From positions 31,273-95,272 of the forward strand of contig DASCQF010000139.1 in the NCBI GenBank assembly GCA_036012905.1: DNA of 64,000 bases, written 5' to 3'. Source of the DNA: Vicinamibacterales bacterium (GTDB lineage: Bacteria > Acidobacteriota > Vicinamibacteria > Vicinamibacterales > UBA8438). The translations under genes were made by a program, and so were the position numbers. Shown piece by piece: positions 808-17,977 of the stretch. Position 1 is the first letter of the stretch, and each line of letters begins with the position of its first letter. The notes beneath the pieces were generated by a model. It was not told the DNA's origin. It worked only from the letters and a program-made list of their open reading frames with translations, and searched no databases.

Positions 808-1863
808 ATGAGGCAGTGGATCAGCCTGGCGGCTGCCGTCCTCGCGCTCGGGGGCTCGCTCGACGCGGCGACGGTCACGACGGTAATCGGCACAGGTGAA
901 TCGGGTCTCTCTGAGACGCAGGTCGCCAACCCCTACGGGGTCGTCGTAGGACCGGACGATGCGCTGTATTTTTGCGATCTGGACAACCAGCGGATCCGGC
1001 GCCTCGACCTGGCCACCGGAAGCACGACGACGGTCGCCGGTAACGGCATCCGCGGCTACAGCGGCGACGGGGGCCCAGCCACCGCCGCCGCGTTGAACAT
1101 GCCGCACGAGATCCAGTTCGACAGCGACGGGCACCTCTATATCGTCGAACGGGACAACCATGCGGTTCGGCGCGTCGACGCAGCCACGGGCATCATCTCG
1201 ACCGTCGCCGGGACCGGTGAGGCCGGTTTTTCTGGCGACGGCGGTCCCGCCACCGCCGCCGAGCTGCGCCAGCCCCACAGCATCGCGTTCGACCCGCAGG
1301 GCCGGCTGCTCATTTGCGACGTCGGCAATCACCGGATCCGCCGGGTGGACCCAACCACCGGGATCATCGAGACATGGGCCGGCACCGGGGCACGAGAGCC
1401 GACACCGGATGGCGCACCACTCGCCGGCACACCGCTAAACGGCCCACGCGCGATGGCACTCGACCCGGACGGCAACTTGTATCTGGCGTTGCGCGAAGGG
1501 AATGCGATTTATCGAATCGATCTGGGCACCGAGACGATCCACCACGTGGCCGGCACCGGCGAACCGGGCCACACCGGCGACGGCGGACCGGCCACGCAAG
1601 CCACGCTGGGCGGACCCAAGGGACTGGCCTACGAAGACGGTCAGCTGTATATCGCCGACACGGAGAATCACGTTATCCGGATGATCGACATCGGGCGCGG
1701 TGTCATCTCCACGGTGCTGGGCGACGGGCAACGGGGAGACGGGCCGGAACCAGACCCGCAGCGTTGCCGACTTGCGCGACCGCATGGTGTTTTTGCTGGT
1801 GCCGCCGGCCTCTACGTCGGCGACAGCGAGGCGCACCGCATTCGGCTGCTGCGCAGGGAATGA
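808..1863 (+). CDS. secreted NHL-repeat beta-propeller protein
   Basis: The in-frame ATG at 808 inside track ORF 238..1863 gives signal peptide MRQWISLAAAVLALGGSLDA. Repeated GxGxxGxSGDGGPAxxAxLxxPxxxxxDxxGxLYIxDxxNHxIRRVD blades. The upstream 190 codons overlap the TPR gene and look like high-GC read-through. Confidence 0.85.
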   Translation: MRQWISLAAAVLALGGSLDAATVTTVIGTGESGLSETQVANPYGVVVGPDDALYFCDLDNQRIRRLDLATGSTTTVAGNGIRGYSGDGGPATAAALNMPHEIQFDSDGHLYIVERDNHAVRRVDAATGIISTVAGTGEAGFSGDGGPATAAELRQPHSIAFDPQGRLLICDVGNHRIRRVDPTTGIIETWAGTGAREPTPDGAPLAGTPLNGPRAMALDPDGNLYLALREGNAIYRIDLGTETIHHVAGTGEPGHTGDGGPATQATLGGPKGLAYEDGQLYIADTENHVIRMIDIGRGVISTVLGDGQRGDGPEPDPQRCRLARPHGVFAGAAGLYVGDSEAHRIRLLRRE

Positions 1864-4770: not shown

Positions 4771-4959
4771 GCAGTTCCGGTCTTTCCTGTCAGAAGGCTG
4801 GCGAAGGCAGAGAACATTATACGCAACAGTCGGTCGGCACTGGGCCACGGGCCGGGTCACCGGCTATAATCTCCCTCATAGAAACGATAGTTACGAGAGA
4901 TGCGCGACAACTCGCCCCGACCATCCTGTGCACGGGGAACACGACAAGGAGAACGTAGA

Positions 4960-5601
4960 ATGAGAATCTTGCAGCTGCTCTGCGCCGCAACCCTGCTCTG
5001 TCTGCTGAGCGCCTCGCCGGCGCTCGCCCAGGCCTCCGACATGACGTTCTTCCTGACCAGCGTCGGCTCCGGCAGCGGCGCCGACCTGGGCGCGCTGGCC
5101 GGCGCCGATGCGCATTGCCAGTCACTGGCGGCGGCGGTCGGCGGGGGCAACAAGACGTGGCGTGCCTATCTCAGCACCACCGGCTCAGGCGGCGTCAACG
5201 CCCGCGACCGCATTGGCTCTGGTCCGTGGCAGAACGTTGCGGGTGTCGTCGTCGCGCGAGACCTCGACCAGCTCCACTACGAGAACAACCTGACCAAGGA
5301 AACGGTGCTCAACGAGAAGGGTGAGATGACCAATGGGCGCGGCGACGACCCGAACCAGCACGACATCCTGACCGGCTCCAATCTCGACGGGACCGCCTCG
5401 TCAGACACGGACGCGTGCAGCAACTGGACCTCGAGCGCCGACGGCGGCACCGGAAGCGCCATGGTCGGACACTTCGACCGCACCGGCGGCGGCGCAAACC
5501 CGAACTCCTGGAACTCGGCGCATGGTTCGCGCGGATGCAGCCAGGCCAATCTGATCGCGACCGGCGGCAACGGATACTTCTACTGTTTCGCTGCCAACTG
5601 A
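4960..5601 (+). CDS. secreted four-Cys protein resembling the endostatin / C-type-lectin-like fold
   Basis: AAGGAGAA lies upstream of the ATG at 4960. Signal peptide MRILQLLCAATLLCLLSASPALAQA. Hand alignment to the collagen XVIII endostatin domain from memory: GADAHCQSLAAAVG..WRAYLST vs [28 protein letters not shown] vs YCETWRT; YFYCFAAN vs YIVLCIEN. All four Cys are in equivalent positions. Confidence 0.6.
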   Translation: MRILQLLCAATLLCLLSASPALAQASDMTFFLTSVGSGSGADLGALAGADAHCQSLAAAVGGGNKTWRAYLSTTGSGGVNARDRIGSGPWQNVAGVVVARDLDQLHYENNLTKETVLNEKGEMTNGRGDDPNQHDILTGSNLDGTASSDTDACSNWTSSADGGTGSAMVGHFDRTGGGANPNSWNSAHGSRGCSQANLIATGGNGYFYCFAAN

Positions 5602-5658: not shown

Positions 5659-5799
5659 CTGCTGCACGAGAGCGCTGCGAGGCAGGGTGACGACGCTGAC
5701 CAGGGCGCGAGGTCACGGCCCTGCTGCAGGGTTTCCGAGTACTCCTGAATGTCTCGACCTCAGCGCGACCGGCCGCGGCCAGAGGGCTCCAGCGGTTCG

Positions 5800-7740
5800 A
5801 TGGAATCGGCGCGCGGTCCGCTCCGCTTTGTGCCGGCGGCCGTGCTGCTACTCGCCTCGGCCGGACTCGGGGTCGCCTTGGCGACCACCGGAGCCCGTGA
5901 CGTCCCCGAATCGGAAATCGACACCCGGCCCATCCAAGTGGACGGCGACGGGTATGTCTCCTCCGACACCTGCAAGGCCTGTCACCCCGCAGAGTACGAC
6001 AGTTGGTTTGGGTCGTTTCACCGCACGATGACCCAGGTCGCCACACCGGAGACGGTGCGTGCCGATTTCGACCGGGTACGCGTCGAGAACACCCATGGAC
6101 AACCGATGTTACTCGAACGCGACGGAGACGAGTACTGGGCGGAATTTGACGACCCGGGGTGGGAAGGAGCCGAATCTGACCGTCCCCGTATCACGAGACG
6201 GGTGGTGATGATCACCGGGTCTCATCACCAGAACATCTACTGGTACGAAACGGGGCACGACCGCGGATTGAACGTACTCCCGAGCGTGTATCTCATCGAA
6301 GAGCAGCGGTGGGCCTCGCGTAGCGCCGTCGTGCTGCACCCGCCCCAGCAGTCGCTCGCCATGTTGAACGGGCACTGGAACGCGATCTGCATCGTGTGTC
6401 ACACCACCCAGGGCAAGACGGCGTTCGACACGCCCTACCGGTCCGAAGCGTTCGAGCTGCAGACGATCGACACGACCGTGGCGGAGTTCGGCATCGCCTG
6501 CGAGTCCTGTCATGGACCGGCCGAGGCCCATATCGCCGCAAACCGGAATCCCCTCCGTCGCTATGGCCTCCACCTCGCTGGAGACGACGACCCCACCATC
6601 GTGCAACCGAGCCTCCTCGACCCCCGGCGCTCGTCACAGGTGTGCGGGCAATGCCACAGCGTCTGGGAGTTCTATGACGCGGCAGACGAACGCCACGCCA
6701 ACAGTGCCGGGCTGCCATATCGACCGGGAGACGAGCTGCGGGACACACGCTTTATCGCGCAGCCCTCGGTGGATAGGAGCTCGACAGAGATCCGCACTTT
6801 GGTGAATGACGACCCGGACTTCGTGCGCGGCTCCTTTTGGCCTGACGGCATGGTCCGGGTGTCTGGACGAGAATACAACGGCCTGATCGACTCTCCCTGC
6901 TTCCGCGATGCCACCGAACCTGACCACACGCTGACCTGCTTTTCATGTCACACGCTGCACAAGACCGCCGAGGACCCACGACCGGTGTCGGAGTGGGCCG
7001 ACACGCACCAGGTGTCGACCGACATGGCGGGCAACGACGCCTGTCTGCAGTGTCACGAGCCGATGCGGGGCGACGTCACGGCCCACACGCGGCATCCGGC
7101 GGAGTCGTCCGGCAGCAGCTGCTACAACTGCCACATGCCCTACACCGCATACGGGCTCCTCAAGACGGAGCGGAGTCACACCATCAGCAGCCCGACCGCC
7201 ACCGAAACGGCCGAGCTCGGCCGCCCGAATGCCTGCAACCTCTGTCATCTCGACAGAACCGTGGGTTGGACCGCCGACAAGCTGCACGACTGGTATGGCA
7301 CACCGGTGCCAGAGCTGGGCGGTGCGAACCGCACCGTTGCGGCTTCGCTGCTCTGGATACTGAGCGGTGACGCCGGTCTGCGCGCGCTCACCGCTCAGAG
7401 CATGGGGTGGGCGCCGGCGCAGGAGGCCTCCGGCACCAGCTGGATGGTGCCGCATCTGGGCGAGGCGCTTGGCGACCGCTACGACGCCGTGCGGTTCATC
7501 GCCGCGCGGTCGCTACGGAGCCTCCCTGGGTACGCCGACATGGCGTATGACTTCGACGGCCCAGAACAGGACCGGGTCGACGTGGCCGTGCGGGTACTGA
7601 GTGCATGGCGGGCCAGTCCGGCCTCGCGGCAACGGCGCGACGCCGAGCTTCTCGTCGATGCCGACGGCGAGCTCCGGGTCGACGCCATGCGACAGCTCTT
7701 CGACCAGCGCGACAGGCGCCCGCTGTTCCTCAGGGAATGA
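5800..7740 (+). CDS. octaheme c-type cytochrome with C-terminal helical-repeat domain
   Basis: Eight CXXCH motifs in the translation (CKACH, CIVCH, CESCH, CGQCH, CFSCH, CLQCH, CYNCH, CNLCH). The ATG at 5800 gives signal/anchor MESARGPLRFVPAAVLLLASAGLGVALA (alternative ATG at 5749). The last ~150 aa are HEAT/ARM-like. Confidence 0.8.
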   Translation: MESARGPLRFVPAAVLLLASAGLGVALATTGARDVPESEIDTRPIQVDGDGYVSSDTCKACHPAEYDSWFGSFHRTMTQVATPETVRADFDRVRVENTHGQPMLLERDGDEYWAEFDDPGWEGAESDRPRITRRVVMITGSHHQNIYWYETGHDRGLNVLPSVYLIEEQRWASRSAVVLHPPQQSLAMLNGHWNAICIVCHTTQGKTAFDTPYRSEAFELQTIDTTVAEFGIACESCHGPAEAHIAANRNPLRRYGLHLAGDDDPTIVQPSLLDPRRSSQVCGQCHSVWEFYDAADERHANSAGLPYRPGDELRDTRFIAQPSVDRSSTEIRTLVNDDPDFVRGSFWPDGMVRVSGREYNGLIDSPCFRDATEPDHTLTCFSCHTLHKTAEDPRPVSEWADTHQVSTDMAGNDACLQCHEPMRGDVTAHTRHPAESSGSSCYNCHMPYTAYGLLKTERSHTISSPTATETAELGRPNACNLCHLDRTVGWTADKLHDWYGTPVPELGGANRTVAASLLWILSGDAGLRALTAQSMGWAPAQEASGTSWMVPHLGEALGDRYDAVRFIAARSLRSLPGYADMAYDFDGPEQDRVDVAVRVLSAWRASPASRQRRDAELLVDADGELRVDAMRQLFDQRDRRPLFLRE

Positions 7741-8231
7741 TGGCTCGAGACACCGACCCCGCCGTGGATTACGCCAGGCGCCACCTGCGTGTCGGCTGGT
7801 GGTCTCTGGTGGGCTTTCTCATCCTCGGCTTCGTGCTCGAGGTGCTGCACGGGTTCAAGATCGGCCTGTACCTCGACGTGTCGAACGAGACCCGGCGCCT
7901 CATGTGGACGCTGGCCCACGCCCACGGGGCGCTGCTGGGTTTGGTCCACGTCCTCTACGCGCTGTGTCTTCGTCTGTTCCCGGGTGTGGCCGCCGGCTCT
8001 CAGAAGCCGGTCTCCTCGAGCCTCATCGGTGCCTCGGTCCTGCTGCCGGGCGGCTTCTTCCTCGGCGGCGTCGGCTTCTACGCTGGGGACCCGGGTCTGG
8101 GCATTCTGGCGGCGCCGGTGGGCGCCACGCTGCTGATAATTGCCGTGTTTCTGATCGCGCGGGCGACCGCCTCACCAGACAGCAGGCAGGAGCAACCGGA
8201 GGGCCACGGGGGCAGTGGCAGGAGGCGTTAG
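7737..8231 (+). CDS. small four-helix membrane protein with His-rich TM segments
   Basis: The ATG at 7737 overlaps the cytochrome stop codon (gaATGAtgg; TGA at 7738-7740). Four hydrophobic segments, with histidines in LEVLHGF and WTLAHAHGALLGLVHVLY. The upstream part of track ORF 7605..8231 overlaps the cytochrome gene. Confidence 0.6.
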   Translation: MMARDTDPAVDYARRHLRVGWWSLVGFLILGFVLEVLHGFKIGLYLDVSNETRRLMWTLAHAHGALLGLVHVLYALCLRLFPGVAAGSQKPVSSSLIGASVLLPGGFFLGGVGFYAGDPGLGILAAPVGATLLIIAVFLIARATASPDSRQEQPEGHGGSGRRR

Positions 8232-8296: not shown

Positions 8297-9274
8297 TTAC
8301 TCGGTCACCGTCACGGTGACATTGGCCTTCGAGATGAGCAGCGCGTCACTGCCGAAAGCGCGTAGCGTGTAGGTGCCAGGCTCGCTGAAGGTCACGGTGG
8401 ACTCGAAAGTGCCGGAGGTCCATCCGTCCCCGTCCATCCCCTCTTCCCACTCCTGGTACCCCTCCGGCGAGAACTCGGCATCGGACGGACCGCGAAAGAC
8501 GACCCACAGCACCGACAGGTGGTTGCGTGGCACGTTGTGTCGCGAATATTGCGGGATATTGTCCGGCATGGCCGGCGCATCATCTGGCGGAATCAGCGTT
8601 GGCTCGCGCCGACGCCGGAACGCGTCCGGGTCCCGCTCGGGTAGTGGCACCGGGATCTCATCATCGGTCATCCGTGCGGTCAGCGTCAGGGGCTGGTCGA
8701 CGCTAATCGACGCCTGGCTCGCCTCGACGGAGATGGTCGGCGGCACGTCGGCGTACAGCTCCTCGAAACTGCGGCCAAATTGCGTGCGACCATTCGACGT
8801 GATCGTGTTCACGTCGATCTCCCATTCGGCCTGCAGCCACCCGTAAGCATATTGGGTGCTACCGCGATGGGTGACCTGCCACGTCAGCTCGGCGTCAGGT
8901 GGAAAGTCGGCTGGCACGCGCACCTCGAACTGGTACCTATTCGTCCGCGGATAGAAGTAGGCGGGCTGACCGCGGTCCTGCTCACCGGGCGAGAAGAAGT
9001 TGTTCTCGCCGATCGGCACGTGCGGCCGCTCCGCATAATTGCGGTTGAGATAGCCAAAGAGAAAGTTGTAGCTCCCATCGTCATTGTGGGTCCAGCCTTC
9101 GAAGATCGGCTGCACGTCTTGTCCCGTATTGAACCGCTGCTGCGGCTGCGTCACGATCGGGACGTCACGCGAATTGATCTGGGCACGCCCACTCGCCGCG
9201 GCACCAAACACCATGACGACGACCAATCCACCGGCGAGCGCCGCTTGTGGTACCCGCTGGGTTAAGCACTTCAT
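8297..9274 (-). CDS. secreted protein of unknown function
   Basis: Track ORF 8297..9325. The ATG at 9274 is preceded by GGAAGGTGA and gives signal peptide MKCLTQRVPQAALAGGLVVVMVFGAAASGRAQ (alternative ATGs at 9289 and 9292). I recognise no family. Confidence 0.6.
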   Translation of the reverse strand: MKCLTQRVPQAALAGGLVVVMVFGAAASGRAQINSRDVPIVTQPQQRFNTGQDVQPIFEGWTHNDDGSYNFLFGYLNRNYAERPHVPIGENNFFSPGEQDRGQPAYFYPRTNRYQFEVRVPADFPPDAELTWQVTHRGSTQYAYGWLQAEWEIDVNTITSNGRTQFGRSFEELYADVPPTISVEASQASISVDQPLTLTARMTDDEIPVPLPERDPDAFRRRREPTLIPPDDAPAMPDNIPQYSRHNVPRNHLSVLWVVFRGPSDAEFSPEGYQEWEEGMDGDGWTSGTFESTVTFSEPGTYTLRAFGSDALLISKANVTVTVTE

Positions 9275-9341
9275 GATCACCTTCCGCATCATCTTCCCAC
9301 TTGGTTGTCCAGCTACCGTGAGCACGTCAACAATTGCTACG

Positions 9342-9380
9342 AAAAGCCCCCTGCGAAAGCGTTTCGCTCCCGCAGAGGGC
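9342..9380 (-). terminator. intrinsic-terminator-like hairpin after the monooxygenase-like gene
   Basis: Minus strand reads GCCCTCTGCGGGAGCGAAACGCTTTCGCAGGGGGC followed by TTTT. The outer stem is about 10 bp with one G-U, plus inner pairs. It lies about 35 nt downstream of the stop at 9416. Confidence 0.6.
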
Positions 9381-9415
9381 CATGTTCCTCATTACACAGA
9401 CGGGGGCCCGACGGC

Positions 9416-10690
9416 CTAGTCGTTGTCGGTCGCCGACTTCCTCGCCTCGAGCTCAGCCGCGTACTCCTCCTCGCTGAGGTCGTACCAGCTGATCCACGCG
9501 AACGCCATCTCGTCGACGCCCCGACTCCCGCCACCGGTCCAGTTCTTCGCATCGGGGTTGCCGCGATTCCCCTCGGTGTTGTCGTGATAGCTCAGCACGT
9601 GCAGGGTCGTCCCGGCCGGATACACCGGCTGCTTGTCATCTTCGTAGTTGTAGACGATGTGCCAGCTGAAATCGAAGTTCGCGCAGCTGACCATCTCGGT
9701 CGCGCCCGTCGGGTAAATCAGCTCGAGACACTGGCGTGTCCCCAGAAAGTGCATGTGCGGCTGGAACCCGGTGAGCCTACCGGGCAGATACATCTTCGCG
9801 TAGCCGTCGTGGCGCGTCACCTGCCCAGCCGGGATATCGAGCTCGCCGGCCTGGCCGAGCTGCCGCGAATAGAGAATGTGGTCCGGCTCGAATCCCACTG
9901 GATTGAGCACCATGCCGAGCTCGGTCTGTTCGGTCACTTCCTCACCGATCGAGTGGTAGTGGAAACTGAACCGCACGCGCGAGTCCGCCTCGAACAGCCG
10001 CGCGGTCCCTTCCGGATACACGTCTGCGTTCTTGCCGACCGCGTATTCGTTCAGGAAGGCGTCCCCGGAGCTGTCGCTCAATGGCGCCTCGGGGTCGGTC
10101 ACGGCATAGGTCAGCGCGTGGTGCACCACCCGCAGATCGCCCGCCTTGGTCTGGATGGCCTGGATGTAGCGGTCTTCTGTAATTCCCGACGGCACGACGT
10201 AGTCGCCCCACCAGTCACCTGCCTCGGCCGGTACGGTGTGCAGTGGCGAGGTCACGATGACATCCGGCTCGATCGTCCAGGCGCCGAACTCCTGCAGCTC
10301 GGCCGGTGGCGGTGCATCTTCGGGATTGCCCCGCGGTGCGCCGTTGTCGACCCACTTCGCGATTGTGGCGATCTCATCCTCATTCAACGACCGGTCATTC
10401 TTGAACCCCTGCACGCCGACCTTCGGATCGATGTGCCACGGCGGCATCTCGCGCACCTCGACCTTGTTCTTGATCGACCGTGCCCAGGGGCGGGTCTCCT
10501 GATAGCTCATCAGCGACATCGGCGCCATGTTGTTGGGCCGATGACAGACTTGACAAGAGCGCTGAAAAATAGGCTCAATGTCCTTGTGGAATGTCGGGGC
10601 ATCCGGCACCTCTGCAGCCGCCGCTGCCGGAAGCATCCATGTCGCGGTCACGATCGCCAGAAGCACTGCATGAAGTCTGGCGTTTCTCAT
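9416..10690 (-). CDS. cytochrome c domain fused to a copper type II (PHM/DBH-like) monooxygenase-like domain
   Basis: Track ORF 9416..11047. The ATG at 10690 is preceded by GGAGGTG and gives signal peptide MRNARLHAVLLAIVTATWMLPAAAAA. One CXXCH (CQVCH) in a FHKDIEPIFQRSCQVCH context. Downstream motifs VVHHAL, FHYHS, QPHMHFLG and GGGSRGVDEMAF match the spacing logic of the PHM CuH (HH..H) and CuM (HxH..M) sites. Confidence 0.65.
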   Translation of the reverse strand: MRNARLHAVLLAIVTATWMLPAAAAAEVPDAPTFHKDIEPIFQRSCQVCHRPNNMAPMSLMSYQETRPWARSIKNKVEVREMPPWHIDPKVGVQGFKNDRSLNEDEIATIAKWVDNGAPRGNPEDAPPPAELQEFGAWTIEPDVIVTSPLHTVPAEAGDWWGDYVVPSGITEDRYIQAIQTKAGDLRVVHHALTYAVTDPEAPLSDSSGDAFLNEYAVGKNADVYPEGTARLFEADSRVRFSFHYHSIGEEVTEQTELGMVLNPVGFEPDHILYSRQLGQAGELDIPAGQVTRHDGYAKMYLPGRLTGFQPHMHFLGTRQCLELIYPTGATEMVSCANFDFSWHIVYNYEDDKQPVYPAGTTLHVLSYHDNTEGNRGNPDAKNWTGGGSRGVDEMAFAWISWYDLSEEEYAAELEARKSATDND

Positions 10691-10943
10691 TACGTCACCT
10701 CCAAGGCCAACAAGACTATTACTATCTGTACACACCGACCAGCGGCAATAGTTTAACCTCAATGTGTCGGTTTGTCCATGAGCGACATCATATCGCAGAA
10801 CGACGCCGGTATCTCGACGGCGCTCGCTGTTCGCGTGCTCGTTGCTTCGTCGAGCGTCGCCCCGATGTGTGTGGTACGATGTGAAACAGGCGCGACGATG
10901 CGCCGCCGACGTTCCAGTCTCTTCGCCGCGTCCACCCAACCAC

Positions 10944-12101
10944 ATGATCGTCGGAGTTCCCACAGAGACATTTCCGGGCGAGCGTCGCGTCGCGACCATC
11001 CCGGCCGTCGTTCCGGCGCTGACCAAGGCCGGGCTCGATGTGCTCATCGAGCCCGGCGCGGGAGAATCGGCCGGATTCCTAGACGCCGCCTACACTGACA
11101 AGGGAGCTCGGATCGCCGCCGGTCGCGCGCGGCTGTTCGCCGACGCCGACGTCATCCTGCAGGTGCGGTCGCTTGGCGCCAATCCAGTCAACGGGCGCGA
11201 CGACCTCGAACTGCTGAGACCGGATCAAACCGTCATCGGCTTCTCCGAGCCGCTCGGTGAGCCCCAGGCGGCGCGCGACCTCGCTGCTCGGGGTGCGACC
11301 GCATTTTCGATGGAGCTCATTCCGCGAATCACCCGAGCACAGAGCATGGATGCGATGTCGTCGATGGCGACCATCGCCGGCTACAAGGCGGTGCTGCTGG
11401 CGGCCGACACGCTGCCCCGCATGTTTCCGATGATGATGACGGCCGCAGGTACCATCACGCCGGCCCGCGTATTCGTCGTGGGCGCCGGCGTCGCCGGTCT
11501 TCAGGCGATCGCCAGCGCGCGCCGGCTTGGCGCCAAGGTCGAGGCCTACGACGTCAGACCCGCGGTCAAGGAGCAGGTCGAGAGCCTCGGCGCCGCTTTC
11601 GTCGACCTGCCGCTCGACACGGACGACTCGGAGGACAAGGGCGGCTACGCGAAGGCGCAGGACGAGGCGTTCTACGCCCGTCAACGCGAGATGATGGCCC
11701 GGGTGGTGGCTGCCAGCGATGTCGTCATCACGACCGCGTTGATCCCAGGTCGGCCGGCCCCGATACTCGTGACCGACGAGATGGTGGCCGGCATGACGCC
11801 GGGCTCCGTTCTGGTCGATCTGGCCGCCGAGCGAGGTGGCAACGTGGAGCCGTCACGACCCGACGAGACGGTCGTCGCGCACGGGGTGACGGTCCTGGGC
11901 CCGACGAACCTACCGGCCACGGTGCCGTTCCACGCGAGCCAGATGTTCGCCAAGAACGTGTCGACCCTGCTTCTGCACCTTGTCGACGATGGGGCACTTC
12001 GGATCGATCTCGAGGACGAGATCACCCAGGGTACGCTGGTCTCGAAGGACGGAGACGTAGTACACCCCCGCGTGCGCGAGTTGCTCGACCCACCGGCTTG
12101 A
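10944..12101 (+). CDS. pntAA: NAD(P) transhydrogenase subunit alpha, part 1
   Basis: The ATG at 10944 gives MIVGVPTETFPGERRVA... The alanine-dehydrogenase/PNT fold signature VFVVGAGVAGLQAIASARRLGA is present, followed by pntAB and pntB. Confidence 0.9.
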   Translation: MIVGVPTETFPGERRVATIPAVVPALTKAGLDVLIEPGAGESAGFLDAAYTDKGARIAAGRARLFADADVILQVRSLGANPVNGRDDLELLRPDQTVIGFSEPLGEPQAARDLAARGATAFSMELIPRITRAQSMDAMSSMATIAGYKAVLLAADTLPRMFPMMMTAAGTITPARVFVVGAGVAGLQAIASARRLGAKVEAYDVRPAVKEQVESLGAAFVDLPLDTDDSEDKGGYAKAQDEAFYARQREMMARVVAASDVVITTALIPGRPAPILVTDEMVAGMTPGSVLVDLAAERGGNVEPSRPDETVVAHGVTVLGPTNLPATVPFHASQMFAKNVSTLLLHLVDDGALRIDLEDEITQGTLVSKDGDVVHPRVRELLDPPA

Positions 12102-12110
12102 GGACACCGA

Positions 12111-12389
12111 ATGGACACGTTCCTGCCGCTGCTGACGATCTTCCTGCTCGCGGTCTTTGTCGGGTGGGAAATCATCACGAAGGTGCCGCCCCTGCTCCAC
12201 ACGCCGTTGATGTCCGGCAGCAACGCCATCTCGGGCATCACGATCATCGGGGCGATTCTCTCGGTCGCCGTCGAGGGCCGCCTGGCCACGGTGCTCGGGT
12301 TCCTGGCGCTGGTGCTGGCTACGATCAACGTGGTCGGCGGCTTCCTGGTCACCCATCGCATGTTGGGCATGTTCAAGAAGAAGGGCTAG
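12111..12389 (+). CDS. pntAB: NAD(P) transhydrogenase subunit alpha, part 2 (membrane)
   Basis: 92 aa with three hydrophobic helices. Conserved TPLMSGSNAISGI motif. Sits between pntAA and pntB. Confidence 0.9.
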   Translation: MDTFLPLLTIFLLAVFVGWEIITKVPPLLHTPLMSGSNAISGITIIGAILSVAVEGRLATVLGFLALVLATINVVGGFLVTHRMLGMFKKKG

Positions 12390-12451
12390 GGCGTGTGCAC
12401 TGAGAAGGCAGGAGGGCTTCGCCGGCTTCGTTTCAAGATCAGGGTCACGTT

Positions 12452-13849
12452 GTGAGTTCTGTCTTCATCGACCTGACGTATCTGCTGGCGTCGGTCCTCT
12501 TCATTCGCGGGATCAAGGGGCTGACGCACCCGCGGACCGCCGTCCGCGGCAACCTGCTGGGCGCGGCCGGGATGTTGCTGGCGGTCGTGGCAACGCTCGC
12601 TGACCGCCAGGTGCTCGGGGCCGGGGCACAGGGCCTGGGACTGATGCTCGCCGGGGTCCTGATCGGGTCCGCCATCGGCGCCACCCTCGCCCTCAAGATC
12701 CAGCTGACAGCAATTCCCCAGATGGTGGCGTTGCTCAACGCGTTCGGGGGCGGCGCCTCGGCGCTCATCGCAGGCGCAGTGCTGGCCGAGACGCGCGACC
12801 CGACCATGCAGACCGCGGTGGCAACGGTTGCCTCTGGTATCATCGGGTCGGTCACCTTCTGGGGCAGTCTGGTCGCCTTCGACAAGCTGCAAGGGCTGCT
12901 GCTCCCGGACCACCCGGTACACTTCCCGGCGCAACAGGTGGTCAACGCCCTGCTCGGCCTCACGGCGCTGGGGCTGGGAGTCTGGGTCGTGAGTGATCCA
13001 GGCAATCTCACCGCGTTCGGTCTCCTTGTGGCAGTCGGCTCGTTGCTGGGGTTCCTGCTGACGATCCCGATCGGCGGCGCCGACATGCCTGTCGCGATCG
13101 CGTTGCTCAATTCTTACTCCGGACTTGCGGCGGCCTCGACCGGCTTTGTCCTGAACAACAACATCCTCATCATCACCGGCTCACTGGTCGGCGCCTCGGG
13201 GCTCATCCTCACCCGGATCATGTGCAAGGCGATGAACCGGTCGTTGATGAACGTGCTGATGGGCGCGATCGGGCCGGGCAGCGGCCCAACCGTCGGCGCC
13301 GACGAGGTCTACGCCGGTCGGGTCAAGAGCACCTCTCCCGAAGAGGTGGCGATGCTGTTCGACGGCGCGCGACGGGTCGTCATCGTCCCCGGGTACGGCA
13401 TGGCCGTCGCCCAGGCGCAGCACCAGGTGCGGGACCTGGCCAACCTGCTGGAGTCGCAGGGCACCGAAGTGGAGTTCGCCATCCACCCGGTGGCGGGACG
13501 GATGCCGGGTCACATGAACGTACTGCTGGCCGAGGCGGACGTCGACTACGACAAGCTGCGAGAGATGGACGACATCAACCCCACATTCGAGCAGACCGAT
13601 GTGACGCTCGTCATCGGCGCCAACGACATTGTCAACCCGGTCGCCCGCACCGACCCCTCCAGCCCGATCGCCGGCATGCCGATTCTCGATGTCGACAAAT
13701 CGCGCACCGTCGTCGTCGTCAAGCGCAGCCTGTCGCCCGGATTCGCCGGCATCCCGAACCCGCTGTTTGCCACCGACAACACGCTGATGCTATTCGCCGA
13801 CGGGAAGAAGGCGGTCCTCGACCTCATCACCGCCGTCAAAGAGGGATAG
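12452..13849 (+). CDS. pntB: NAD(P) transhydrogenase subunit beta
   Basis: GTG start. N-terminal multi-TM region plus a C-terminal NADP(H) domain (VVIVPGYGMAVAQAQH, HPVAGRMPGHMNVLLAEA, GANDIVNP). Confidence 0.9.
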   Translation: MSSVFIDLTYLLASVLFIRGIKGLTHPRTAVRGNLLGAAGMLLAVVATLADRQVLGAGAQGLGLMLAGVLIGSAIGATLALKIQLTAIPQMVALLNAFGGGASALIAGAVLAETRDPTMQTAVATVASGIIGSVTFWGSLVAFDKLQGLLLPDHPVHFPAQQVVNALLGLTALGLGVWVVSDPGNLTAFGLLVAVGSLLGFLLTIPIGGADMPVAIALLNSYSGLAAASTGFVLNNNILIITGSLVGASGLILTRIMCKAMNRSLMNVLMGAIGPGSGPTVGADEVYAGRVKSTSPEEVAMLFDGARRVVIVPGYGMAVAQAQHQVRDLANLLESQGTEVEFAIHPVAGRMPGHMNVLLAEADVDYDKLREMDDINPTFEQTDVTLVIGANDIVNPVARTDPSSPIAGMPILDVDKSRTVVVVKRSLSPGFAGIPNPLFATDNTLMLFADGKKAVLDLITAVKEG

Positions 13850-13918
13850 CCACTTCGGCGCGCTATAATCCGAAACTCGCACGCCACCGAGCTCAGCGCT
13901 CGCCCTGCCAGACGAGGA

Positions 13919-16900
13919 GTGTCGTTCATGAGCCTCAGTCTTCCGCACGCCAGGCGGATCGCATGTGTCACCACGACCTGTTGTCTCGCCGGCTGGATTG
14001 CCCTCGACGCAGCCCGTGCTCGGCCACGGACGGCGACCCTGGCCATCACCGGCGCCTCGATCGTCGCTCGCGCAGGCGACGACGCGGCGCCGGGCACGAT
14101 CGTCATCACGGACGGGACCATCACCGCGATTGGCAGCGGTGTGACGGTCCCCCCGGGCGCGGATGTGCTCGACGCCGAAGGCATGATGGCGTATCCAGGT
14201 TTCCTCGATGGCGCCACCTCGATCGGCGCGGGCGGTGACGGGCGAAATCGGACATCCGGGTCGCCCCAGGACCTCGACCAGGATCTGACACGCGACGCGC
14301 TCGCCGCGACGCGCAGCGTGAACCGCAAAGGCATCTTTCCCGACTACGCCGTCGCCCAGAACCTGCGTGTCTCGAAGCGTGACGCCGACACCTGGCGCGC
14401 CGCTGGGTTCGCCGCGGCCCACTCGATGCCGACCAACGCGCTCATTGCCGGCACCAGCGCCGTGGCGCTCCTCCTCGACTCGGCCGATGCGGATGGCACG
14501 CGAGCCATCGTCAGCGCCAACACGATGCTCGCCGCCGGCTGGCGAGCGCCTGGCGATGATTACCCACGCAGCCTGATGGGATCGATCGCGCATTTGCGAC
14601 AAACGTTCCTCGACGCGCAGCACTACGGCTCCGTCTGGGACATCTACCGCGAGACCAACGGCATTTCCCGCCGCCCGGGGTACGACTTCGCGCTCGAAGC
14701 GCTACAGCCGGTACTAGACGGGGAGCTCCCGATCCTTTTTTCGGCCGCCCGTCAGGACGAGATAGACCGTGCCTTGGGCCTGGCCAACGAGTTCGATCTC
14801 CGTCTTGTCGTGGATGGCGGACGGGAGGCGGTGCAGGCGGTCACCCGGCTACAGGCCGCCCGCGTGCCGGTCTTGCTCCGGGTCGACTTCCCTGTCGAGC
14901 CACGGCCCGACACGCCCACCCTCGAGCGGCTCGAGGCCCGCGCGAGGTCTATCGGGCGCCCGCTCACAGACGCCATGGTCCAGTCGGCTGTTAATGCCGA
15001 CCGCGACATCCGTGTCGCCGAGCCAGTCGGGCGCTTCACTGAGCGCCACCGTCTCTGGCAGGAGCAAGTCGATGCGGCTGCAACCCTGGCTGCCTCGCCT
15101 CATCCATTCGCCATTACCACGCGTGGCCAGCGCAATGCCACCCAGTTCTTCGCCAACCTACGGCTGGCGATCGCGGCCGGGCTGTCGCACGATGCGGCCG
15201 TCGATGCTCTGACACTCGGACCAGCGGGCATCCTCGGGGTCGACCGGCAGCTCGGCTCGCTCGAAATCGGCAAGATTGGGAACGTCACGTTGCTCGACGG
15301 CCGTCTGGGAGAAGCGGATGCGCGTGTGCGATGGGTTGTCGTCGATGGCGTGCCCTACGAACAGACGCCTGCGGCGTCGAACCCATCGAACCAGGACGAC
15401 CAATCCGCACCACCGGAGGAGGAGACGGCCGAGCCGGCGCCCTCCAGCGAGAACGGCTGGCCGGTGGAAACCGATGCCAGTCGCGTCCCGGCCACCCGCA
15501 CCGGCGGCGATGTGCTGATACGGAATGCCACCGTCCTCACAATGGCCGATGCGGGTGTGCTCCCCGAGACCGACATCCTGGTGCGTGACACGGAGATCGT
15601 CGAGATCGGTCGCGACCTGGCTGCTCCGAGCGGGATCACCGTCGTCGATGCCGCCGGCGCCTGGGTGATGCCGGGCATCATCGACGACCATTCGCATATG
15701 GCGACCGACGGCGGCATCAACGAAGCATCGTTGTCGATTACCGCCCAGGTCCGCATCGAGGACGTGCTGCGAGGCGACGACCTGACACTGTATCGGGCCG
15801 CCGCCGGCGGGGTGACGACCGCCAACGTGCTCCACGGCAGCGCCAACACCATCGGGGGACAGCGAGCCGTCATCCAGATGAAATACGGCGTCCCGGCCAC
15901 CGAACTGCTGTTCGACGGTTACCCGCGTGGCATCAAGTTCGCTCTCGGCGAAAACGTCACGCGGCGACGGGACCGTTTTCCCAATACGCGCATGGGACAG
16001 GAGGCGGTGATTCGCCGCGCGCTGACCGAGGCACAGATCTACCAGGCGGGATGGGACGCCTACGACACGGAGGTTCAACGGGCCGACCGCCCTCTGGCGC
16101 CGCCCCGGCGGGATCTCCGGCTCGAAACCTTGGCTGGCATCCTGAGCGGCGAGATCCTGGTTCACAGCCATGGATACAACGCCGATGAGCTGTTCATGCT
16201 GCTGCGGACACTCGAGGAGTTCGGTGTGCGGGAGCTCACGCTGGAGCACGCGCTCGAGGCCTACAAGATCGCCCCGGAAATCGTGGCGTTTGGCAACCGT
16301 GGCGCGTTCGTCTCGACCTTCGCCGACAACTGGGCGTACAAGATCGAGGCTTACGACGCGATCCCGTACAACGTGGCGCTGATCACCGAGGCGGGTGGCC
16401 GCGCCATTATCAACTCAGATAGCGGCGAACGGGTCCGGCGGCTCTATGTCGATGCCGCCAAGATGGTGCGCTTCGGCGGGCTGACCTACCGACAGGCGCT
16501 CGAGACGATCACCGTCAACCCGGCGATGGCGTTGCGAATCGACGACCGCGTCGGGTCGATCGAGGTTGGCAAACGGGCGGATCTCGCGTTGTTCAACGGA
16601 CATCCATTGAACATTTACGCACGCGTCTTCATGACGCTGGTTGGCGGCGAGGTCGCCTTCGAGCGGTCCGGTGAGCGCGGCGGCCCCTTTCCGCTCGAGC
16701 CCAAGCGCCCTACGCCGTCCGGACCGGCACCACAGGACGCCAACGACCGGTACGCGATTGCCAACGCCCAGATCCACCCGGTGTCCGGTCCGACCATTCC
16801 CAACGGCACGCTGGTGTTCGAGGACGGCCGTATCACGGCGGTTGGGTCCGACGTCGAGCCACCGCCCGGCGTGACGGTGGTCGACGCACAGGGCATGTCG

Positions 16901-17977
16901 GTCTATCCGGGATTGATCGATGGCGGCTCGACGCTGGGTCTCAACGAGATCGGCGGCGTGGCCGTGACCCAAGACTCGGCCGAGAGCGGTGTCATTCAAC
17001 CGGACCTTCGGGCCGCCGTCGCGGTGAAACCGGACTCCGAGCTCATTCCCGTAGCCCGGTTCACCGGGATCACCTCCGCCGTGTCGGCCCCGACCGGCGG
17101 TCTGGTCCCGGGGCAGGCGACGCTGATTCAGCTCGCCGGCTGGACACCCGACGAACTGGCCTACATCGACCGCCTCGCATTGCAGATCAACATCCCGAGC
17201 GGAGCCGGCGAGCTCGATATCGGAACCTTGCTGGGCCAGAGCCGAGACCCGGACGACGACGCCCCGACCGCCGACCAGCAGCTGGACCGGCTACGTGAGC
17301 TATTCGAGGAGGCCCGCGCTTACGCGGACCAGCAGGACCAGGCGGCGCAGGCCGGCCAGCGTCTCTTGTCGTACGACCCGGCACTGGAGGCGCTTATCCC
17401 GTATGCTCGGCGGGACAAGCCGGTCATCTTGAACGCGAACTCCGCCGCGGCGATTCTCGTGGCGATCGACCTGGCCGCGGAGTTGGACGTGCGGGCGATT
17501 CTACGGGGTGGCCAGGAGGCCTGGCGGGTCGCCGACCAGATCGCCGACGCCGAGTTGCCCGTCTTGCTCAGTCCACTGACGCGGTCGCCCACCGACCCCT
17601 ACGACTCATACGACTCGGTGTATGCGAGCCCGTTGCGGCTACACGAGGCCGGAGTCACGTTCGGCTTTCAGAGCAACAGCGGATCTGGCTCCCGCGAGCT
17701 ACCATACCAGGCCGGCATGGCGGTCGCCTTCGGACTTCCGCCCGACGTCGCCCTGCGGTCGGTCACACTCAGCACTGCCGAAATCCTTGCAGTTGACGAC
17801 CAGGTGGGCTCGCTCGAGGTGGGCAAACGCGCCGACATCATCGTCACCGACGGCGACCCGCTCCAGGCCGTATCGAACGTCCGGTATATGTTCATCAACG
17901 GCAAGCCGGTTGACCTGAACGACAACCGGCACACGCGGCTGTATCGACAGTACCAGCAGCGCCTGAGCCAACCGTGA
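13919..17977 (+). CDS. tri-modular amidohydrolase-family protein (1352 aa), secreted
   Basis: Three successive modules, each opening with the amidohydrolase beta-sandwich pattern (I.NA.I..G....G.I.I.DG.I.A.G......G..V.DA.G....PG.ID.). Only the middle module has the HxH metal motif (PGIIDDHSHM). The first has FLDGATS and the third LIDGGST at that position. Confidence 0.8.
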   Translation: MSFMSLSLPHARRIACVTTTCCLAGWIALDAARARPRTATLAITGASIVARAGDDAAPGTIVITDGTITAIGSGVTVPPGADVLDAEGMMAYPGFLDGATSIGAGGDGRNRTSGSPQDLDQDLTRDALAATRSVNRKGIFPDYAVAQNLRVSKRDADTWRAAGFAAAHSMPTNALIAGTSAVALLLDSADADGTRAIVSANTMLAAGWRAPGDDYPRSLMGSIAHLRQTFLDAQHYGSVWDIYRETNGISRRPGYDFALEALQPVLDGELPILFSAARQDEIDRALGLANEFDLRLVVDGGREAVQAVTRLQAARVPVLLRVDFPVEPRPDTPTLERLEARARSIGRPLTDAMVQSAVNADRDIRVAEPVGRFTERHRLWQEQVDAAATLAASPHPFAITTRGQRNATQFFANLRLAIAAGLSHDAAVDALTLGPAGILGVDRQLGSLEIGKIGNVTLLDGRLGEADARVRWVVVDGVPYEQTPAASNPSNQDDQSAPPEEETAEPAPSSENGWPVETDASRVPATRTGGDVLIRNATVLTMADAGVLPETDILVRDTEIVEIGRDLAAPSGITVVDAAGAWVMPGIIDDHSHMATDGGINEASLSITAQVRIEDVLRGDDLTLYRAAAGGVTTANVLHGSANTIGGQRAVIQMKYGVPATELLFDGYPRGIKFALGENVTRRRDRFPNTRMGQEAVIRRALTEAQIYQAGWDAYDTEVQRADRPLAPPRRDLRLETLAGILSGEILVHSHGYNADELFMLLRTLEEFGVRELTLEHALEAYKIAPEIVAFGNRGAFVSTFADNWAYKIEAYDAIPYNVALITEAGGRAIINSDSGERVRRLYVDAAKMVRFGGLTYRQALETITVNPAMALRIDDRVGSIEVGKRADLALFNGHPLNIYARVFMTLVGGEVAFERSGERGGPFPLEPKRPTPSGPAPQDANDRYAIANAQIHPVSGPTIPNGTLVFEDGRITAVGSDVEPPPGVTVVDAQGMSVYPGLIDGGSTLGLNEIGGVAVTQDSAESGVIQPDLRAAVAVKPDSELIPVARFTGITSAVSAPTGGLVPGQATLIQLAGWTPDELAYIDRLALQINIPSGAGELDIGTLLGQSRDPDDDAPTADQQLDRLRELFEEARAYADQQDQAAQAGQRLLSYDPALEALIPYARRDKPVILNANSAAAILVAIDLAAELDVRAILRGGQEAWRVADQIADAELPVLLSPLTRSPTDPYDSYDSVYASPLRLHEAGVTFGFQSNSGSGSRELPYQAGMAVAFGLPPDVALRSVTLSTAEILAVDDQVGSLEVGKRADIIVTDGDPLQAVSNVRYMFINGKPVDLNDNRHTRLYRQYQQRLSQP

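Follow-up and report, generated by a model that had tools for sequence, protein, structure and literature searches.

A secreted cytochrome c–PHM/DBH-like protein and its conserved partner in Vicinamibacterales

Introduction

Peptidylglycine alpha-hydroxylating monooxygenase (PHM) is the catalytic core of PAM and acts on peptides. Together with dopamine beta-monooxygenase (DBH), it is the textbook example of a non-coupled binuclear copper monooxygenase. In animals, enzymes of this type produce noradrenaline and amidated peptide hormones, and their ligand chemistry and their requirement for two electrons are well established. The two coppers of the superfamily face each other across a solvent cleft at a distance of about 11 A. 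A heme c fused to an enzyme with two copper sites, acting as a built-in electron donor, is known from the cytochrome-c-tethered copper nitrite reductases, and further redox enzymes likewise contain a cytochrome domain. A review of metalloproteomes from 2020 listed PHM and DBH as eukaryotic and not as prokaryotic cuproproteins (PMC7435645). The subject of this study is a gene pair on a 64-kb stretch of DNA from a Vicinamibacterales bacterium (contig DASCQF010000139.1). The whole stretch is called the window, and all positions refer to it. The first gene, at 9416..10690, codes for a secreted protein of 424 amino acids (aa) that combines one heme c domain with a core of two beta-sandwich domains. 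Its predicted fold and aligned ligands place it in the PHM/DBH superfamily. The second gene codes for a secreted protein of 325 aa, which is a true and strictly conserved partner of the first. The pair probably represents a two-copper enzyme of the periplasm that belongs to the non-coupled PHM/DBH type, with a fused heme c donor in place of ascorbate and with the 325-aa protein as accessory subunit.

Results and Discussion

Gene and protein architecture

The enzyme gene and the parts of its product are located as follows.

9416..10690, minus strand: gene of the secreted cytochrome c/PHM-DBH-like protein, putatively with two coppers; open reading frame of 424 aa plus stop
10613..10690, minus strand: Sec-type signal peptide (aa 1-26), read from the sequence, with cleavage at about AAA/AE
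10316..10603, minus strand: mono-heme cytochrome c domain (aa about 30-125), with the CXXCH motif C46-H50 at 10541..10555
9896..10288, minus strand: N-terminal PHM-like beta-sandwich (aa about 135-265, boundaries approximate), with the CuH-type ligands H190, H191 and H244
9476..9895, minus strand: C-terminal PHM-like beta-sandwich (aa about 266-405), with the CuM-type ligands H312, H314 and M395
10750..10778, minus strand: promoter-like site TGGACA-17-TAAACT, from a consensus scan only, which is not evidence of function

The reading frame could extend in frame upstream to 11047. The methionine of the sequence MRNAR is the start in the alignment of all 40 close homologues of the 424-aa enzyme, and a ribosome-binding site, GGAGGTG, lies 6 nt upstream of it. 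The N-terminus is hydrophobic and reads as a Sec-type signal, MRNARLHAVLLAIVTATWMLPAAAAA/EV; residues 1-28 have a low pLDDT in the AlphaFold2 (AF2) model. An export signal is expected for a c-type cytochrome because the attachment of heme c is periplasmic. An earlier, sequence-only reading of the locus had quoted the motifs MPPWH, VVHHAL, FHYHS, QPHMHFLG and GVDEMAF. All were found in the 424-aa enzyme, in this order.

Fold and copper ligands

The sequence-only reading recognised in these motifs the ligand pattern of PHM and DBH and proposed searches with hidden Markov models as a check. The window enzyme itself had no Pfam match for the copper core, and an NCBIfam scan of the single sequence gave nothing for this part. 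Its relatives matched Cu2_monoox_C, and the family profile matched DBH and PHM. This profile was derived from an alignment, A2, of 78 diverse full-length homologues with 26-52% identity to the enzyme. Searched against the PDB, it found human DBH (4zel) across both catalytic domains with an E value of 1.2e-10 and rat PHM with 1.3e-8; a PDB match for the copper core was obtained only with this diverse profile. Cu2_monoox_C (PF03712) was matched by 31 and Cu2_monooxygen (PF01082) by five of the 78 relatives at E < 0.01. A paralogue with 30% identity exceeds the cut-off of PF03712 with 27.1 versus 23 bits.

The profile alignment pairs the putative copper ligands with those of the animal enzymes:

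VVHH (H190, H191): PHM H107 and H108; HH in DBH
HYH (H244): PHM H172; HYH in DBH
PHMH..G (H312, H314): PHM H242 and H244; HTH..G in DBH
DEM (M395): PHM M314; EEM in DBH

Six histidine and methionine residues map in this way onto the CuH and CuM sites, as had been claimed, and no assignment to a non-copper family emerged. The earlier reading of the CuH motif needs one correction. The pattern of a histidine pair plus one histidine stands, and of the two histidines in FHYHS, H244 is the ligand position and H246 is not. The latter is kept in 45/78 homologues only, and the third CuH ligand is therefore assigned to H244, the first histidine of the motif.

Conservation in A2 is low overall, with a mean column identity of 12% and just fifteen invariant columns. 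Ten of these are C46, C49, H50, M82, H190, H191, H244, H312, H314 and M395, which are identical in 78/78 homologues. The others are P57, P83, W113, G121 and P142. The conservation of the ligands is the strongest argument for a core of the PHM/DBH type.

An AF2 model of the enzyme was built on 40 homologues and reached a pLDDT of 77.7 and a pTM of 0.76. The strands of the N-terminal PHM-like domain are visible in it. In a Foldseek search, the best 31 PDB matches of the model were all PHM or DBH, with E values from 8e-12 to 1e-9 over 283-312 aligned columns and template modelling (TM) scores, normalised to the target, of 0.5-0.66 for the PHM chains. The next matches were weaker by four or more orders of magnitude.

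Heme c domain

The enzyme has a single CXXCH motif (C46-Q-V-C49-H50) and two further cysteines only. The single-heme c domain named in the earlier reading is supported: the CXXCH motif and M82 are among the invariant positions, and 56/78 diverse relatives match cytochrome c models (Cytochrome_CBB3) at E < 0.01. For the window enzyme, the Cytochrome_CBB3 score of 20.8 bits is below the Pfam cut-off of 27. The family profile also matches the heme domain of the hydrazine synthase alpha subunit (5c2v) and the mono-heme cytochrome 4rlr, both with E of about 0.002. M82, within the sequence MPPW, is the probable axial heme ligand. We infer that this heme takes the place of ascorbate as electron donor.

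Several observations weigh against a heme-fused copper monooxygenase. The window enzyme alone reached no Pfam copper-monooxygenase model (PF01082, PF03712) at E <= 1. Neither the single sequence nor a profile of close homologues retrieved a PDB chain for the copper core. Because the single sequence reaches no copper entry in Pfam or PDB, homology to PHM and DBH rests on profiles and fold. The AF2 model is poor at the heme pocket (aa 47-58) and in the loop that precedes M395 (aa 378-391). Relatives with a fused AhpC/TSA domain hint at thiol or peroxide chemistry, in place of C-H hydroxylation, for some members of the family. No paper on a bacterial cytochrome c-PHM fusion was found in a literature search that left subscription journals mostly outside.

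The missing Pfam match would also suit a core that, like PNGase F, serves as a binding module without metal, with a His/Met pattern that is coincidental or vestigial; the PHM/PNGase F fold is known to exist without copper. This explanation is hardly credible. At the low mean identity of A2, none of the six ligand positions varies in any homologue; they align one-to-one with the ligands of PHM and DBH, and the best fold matches are PHM and DBH only.

The partner protein

The partner gene lies downstream of the enzyme gene.

8297..9274, minus strand: gene of the 325-aa secreted partner; open reading frame with signal peptide

Gene callers put the start at 9289 (ATG), which gives 330 aa. The sequence-only reading had described the product as a secreted protein of no recognisable family. 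The 325-aa open reading frame and the signal peptide are real, and a domain can now be added. The protein consists of an N-terminal beta-sandwich and a C-terminal PKD/Ig-like domain. The latter is confident in the AF2 model and, as a PKD-like Ig domain, scores below threshold in Pfam. The N-terminal beta-sandwich includes the best-conserved part of the protein, aa 80-112 with the motif DRGQPxYFYPR, which is a low-confidence, disordered loop in the model. A fold search gave generic tandem Ig-like matches only, with TM scores of about 0.2, and no function was assignable from it. No histidine, cysteine or methionine is conserved in the alignment of partner homologues. For this reason, a role of the partner as copper chaperone or metal carrier is unlikely.

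Gene linkage was studied in 84 loci with an enzyme homologue, 80 of them from genomes of distinct species; the scan used subfamily-specific patterns and covered Vicinamibacterales only. In all 84, the next gene downstream on the same strand codes for a partner homologue. The linkage extends to distant enzyme homologues: at 73% (L004), 63% (L086) and 57% (L085) identity of the enzyme, a partner follows with 53%, 47% and 42% identity, respectively. The enzyme and partner genes of L085 share an overlap of 4 nt. In P0122 (665 aa) and P0127 (713 aa), both of them cluster representatives, enzyme and partner are fused into single polypeptides. In both, the cytochrome c-PHM-like part comes first and is followed by the mature partner, detected with E values of 5e-47 and 1e-39. 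Two contigs carry P0127, and they stem from separate samples and assemblies. Partner homologues number 765, far fewer than the enzyme homologues, which run into thousands; the partner is defined as a subfamily-specific accessory.

Strict pairing and fusion would also be expected if the enzyme were a protein-modifying hydroxylase with the partner as its substrate, modified on a side chain in the DRGQPxYFYPR loop. The disorder modelled for this most conserved stretch would suit such a role, and PHM is known to act on peptides. A single-turnover substrate that is used stoichiometrically and fused to the enzyme that modifies it would be unusual, however, and no function is recognisable in the partner for which such a modification would be of use. 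The larger PHM-like family does without the partner, as the numbers of homologues show. A partner that is itself the substrate is thus quite improbable, and its role as an accessory subunit is preferred.

The intercistronic hairpin

The two genes of the window are separated by a spacer with a structured element.

9342..9381, minus strand: intercistronic hairpin with a 17-bp stem (9345..9381), an AAA loop and a following UUUU; terminator-like or an RNA-stability element

The hairpin with its U-run had been noticed in the sequence-only reading, and it is real. An 86-nt spacer segment folds at -40.1 kcal/mol, with z = -3.4. The hairpin has no match to an Rfam family. A repeated element was considered and rejected, as no repeats were found.

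Spacer length (window 9275..9415 and the equivalents in L005-L084) is bimodal between clades. About 30 of the 84 loci have a spacer of at most 35 nt, often of 6-16 nt. In the clade of the window, spacers are 100-250 nt long and have very stable predicted structures (minimum free energies from -50 to -134 kcal/mol), in many cases with a U-run behind them.

On account of the hairpin, co-transcription had been called not assured. This caution is overturned by the presence of the partner at every locus, by the overlap in L085 and by the fusions P0122 and P0127. The hairpin does not make the genes independent, because the partner is strictly linked, once overlapping and elsewhere fused. More plausibly, the hairpin tunes the expression ratio of enzyme to partner or protects the upstream transcript.

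Substrate pocket and PAL-like proteins

PHM binds the C-terminal carboxylate of its peptide substrate with R240, N316 and Y318. These residues align with Q310, F397 and W399 in the window enzyme. Since they are not kept, the enzyme is not a peptidylglycine hydroxylase, and its alignment indicates a substrate other than a glycine-extended peptide. Positions 310, 397 and 399 vary widely across the 78 homologues and between subfamilies. A fixed catalytic machinery with variable pockets fits enzymes of one family that differ in their substrates.

In animals, PHM is paired with PAL within PAM. A PAL-like NHL gene was searched for in the 64-kb window at E < 1e-6, and none was found. An NHL-repeat beta-propeller protein is encoded at 808..1863 (plus strand), 7.5 kb from the enzyme pair, and it is very close to the NHL domain of bacterial teneurin-like proteins (E 7e-90) and not PAL-like. 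A PHM+PAL pairing at the window locus was rejected on these grounds. Other cytochrome c-PHM-like members adjoin NHL beta-propeller proteins (L086:3196-5869, L087:3779-7142 and also L088). The NHL proteins of L086 and L087 are homologous to one another and match the PAL half of animal PAM (3fvz) with E values of 5e-12 and 6.5e-23. The arrangement in L086 and L087 looks like a bacterial pairing of PHM-like and PAL-like proteins, which the window locus does not have.

Family size, distribution and annotation

Loci identical to the window occur on contigs from TARA and other marine metagenomes. The nearest genome is a metagenome-assembled genome of Vicinamibacterales (Acidobacteriota) from the Arabian Sea, with 98% identity. 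The database entry of the exact enzyme protein reads "hypothetical protein [Vicinamibacterales bacterium]". A word-indexed search yielded >4,677 enzyme homologues. An exhaustive search of representatives at 50% identity yielded 2,927 clusters at E < 1e-30 and 16,621 at E < 1e-3, the weakest of which may cover the cytochrome domain only.

Most relatives are annotated as hypothetical protein or cytochrome c, and those with an AhpC/TSA domain often as thiol-disulfide isomerase or redoxin. Some carry automatic tags for PF03712 and PF13442, and one JGI record names a copper monooxygenase domain. Databases therefore already show this combination of domains. Several relatives outside the window have extra domains (P0132, P0208, P0210, P0268, P0270, P0144 and P0409-P0412). 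These include AhpC/TSA (redoxin) domains before the core, added TPR or GAF domains, and proteins of >1000 aa with EF-hands. P0132 apparently has two redoxin and two heme modules.

Octaheme cytochrome and wider neighbourhood

On the opposite strand, two coupled genes run towards the pair.

5749..7740, plus strand: octaheme cytochrome c gene with 8 CXXCH motifs and multiheme matches in Pfam and NCBIfam
7740..8231, plus strand: gene of a 163-aa membrane protein with about four transmembrane helices, seen as hydrophobic segments; overlaps the stop of the octaheme gene

The octaheme cytochrome has weak NrfA-, DmsE- and MtrC-like matches, and its gene is translationally coupled to that of the 163-aa protein. 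The latter has no family match and contains an AHAH motif. The sequence-only reading had placed the enzyme pair convergent to an octaheme gene. The octaheme identity holds with all eight motifs; the directly convergent gene is that of the 163-aa protein. The two genes may form a membrane-anchored electron-transfer module.

The unit stands beside the enzyme pair in 59/84 loci and is absent from L004, L085 and L086. The compact periplasmic redox island of the sequence-only reading is thus kept within one clade and does not extend to the distant loci that have the pair. The octaheme cytochrome was rejected as an integral part of the system, its linkage being limited to a lineage and absent at greater distance. 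It is a possible electron donor in the clade of the window, but common descent alone may account for the linkage.

A secreted protein of about 213-233 aa, whose DUF1554 match lies below threshold, is encoded upstream of the octaheme gene at 4900..5601 (plus strand) and is conserved in this place in 52/84 loci. On the other side of the pair, window 10944..17977 (plus strand) contains a divergent pntAA-pntAB-pntB operon for a proton-translocating transhydrogenase, followed by the gene of a 1352-aa protein with two amidohydrolase modules. The transhydrogenase operon is kept beside the pair in 14/84 loci. Single-module amidohydrolases (about 35% identity) are encoded upstream of the enzyme pair in 17 other loci.

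Proposed mechanism

The enzyme would be exported by the Sec pathway. Heme would be attached by the cytochrome c maturation system, and two coppers would be loaded in the periplasm. The heme, with H50 and M82 as axial ligands, may be reduced by a periplasmic or membrane donor such as a soluble cytochrome c or the bc1 complex. In the clade of the window, this donor could be the octaheme cytochrome with its membrane partner. From the heme, single electrons would pass to the His3 site CuH (H190, H191, H244) and across the interdomain cleft to the His2Met site CuM (H312, H314, M395). CuM would activate O2 and hydroxylate a C-H bond of the bound substrate. The partner would be an obligatory accessory subunit, docking most likely via its conserved loop at aa 80-112. 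It may recruit or position the substrate, or stabilise the complex.

The main rival keeps the scaffold and the metals and replaces the chemistry. The protein could be a periplasmic oxidoreductase and not a C-H hydroxylase, and serve as an electron sink for O2, superoxide or peroxide, or nitrite, by analogy with the cytochrome-c-fused copper nitrite reductases. All PHM substrate-binding residues are lost, many relatives have an N-terminal AhpC/TSA peroxiredoxin-like domain, an octaheme cytochrome adjoins the gene in the clade of the window, and nitrite-bound structures of PHM are in the PDB (3mib, 3mlk). On the other hand, the invariant His3 and His2Met set is exactly as in the monooxygenases. 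Pocket diversity between subfamilies is expected for differing organic substrates, and a dedicated, co-evolving, sometimes fused non-redox partner is easier to explain by substrate handling. An oxidoreductase is unlikely on this balance, and hydroxylation by a two-copper monooxygenase remains the preferred function.

There is an even chance that the window enzyme is the founding member of a large class of copper monooxygenases that act in the bacterial periplasm. In such a class, a fused heme c would wire the enzyme to the respiratory chain, and variable pockets and partners would specialise the subfamilies; here, the partner, a subunit with two beta-sandwiches, would deliver an environmental substrate. 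If this is true, a chemistry long held to be eukaryotic and ascorbate-dependent would be widespread among the bacteria of oceans and soils. It would point to an unrecognised oxygenase activity in the abundant marine and soil Acidobacteria of the Vicinamibacterales. With such an enzyme, long-range electron transfer from CuH to CuM and O2 activation could be studied in a tractable system that needs no ascorbate. The strictly linked partner offers a concrete handle for substrate discovery. The annotation of relatives as hypothetical protein, cytochrome c or thiol-disulfide isomerase could be corrected.

Comparison with known systems

The AhpC/TSA - cytochrome c - Cu2_monoox_C proteins have the same core and the same invariant residues as the window enzyme. 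They differ by extra redoxin, TPR or EF-hand domains and lack the 325-aa partner. The cytochrome-c-tethered copper nitrite reductases share the design of a heme c fusion only, which is an analogy and not a claim of homology. They have a cupredoxin trimer fold with type 1 and type 2 copper and catalyse other chemistry.

DBH, with tyramine beta-monooxygenase and MOXD1, is the best profile match (4zel). The HH, HYH, Q-x-H-x-H-x-x-G and E-M motifs align, and an extra N-terminal domain precedes the catalytic core in both proteins. This domain is a DOMON domain in DBH and a c-type cytochrome in the window enzyme. DBH is eukaryotic, glycosylated and ascorbate-dependent, and nothing points to a phenylethylamine substrate in the window enzyme.

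PHM (PDB 1phm, 1sdw, 3mlj) shares the two-domain beta-sandwich fold and the aligned HH + H and HxH + M ligands. It is secreted as well, so it is active in an oxidising compartment. The window enzyme is only about 15-17% identical to PHM, bacterial and periplasmic, and has an N-terminal heme c domain. It has Q310, F397 and W399 in place of R240, N316 and Y318, no adjacent PAL-like lyase and a dedicated 325-aa partner, and its electron donor is presumably the heme and not ascorbate. Compared with both PHM and DBH, sequence comparison thus indicates a bacterial member of the superfamily with a c-type cytochrome for DOMON, a presumed independence of ascorbate and a partner protein of its own.

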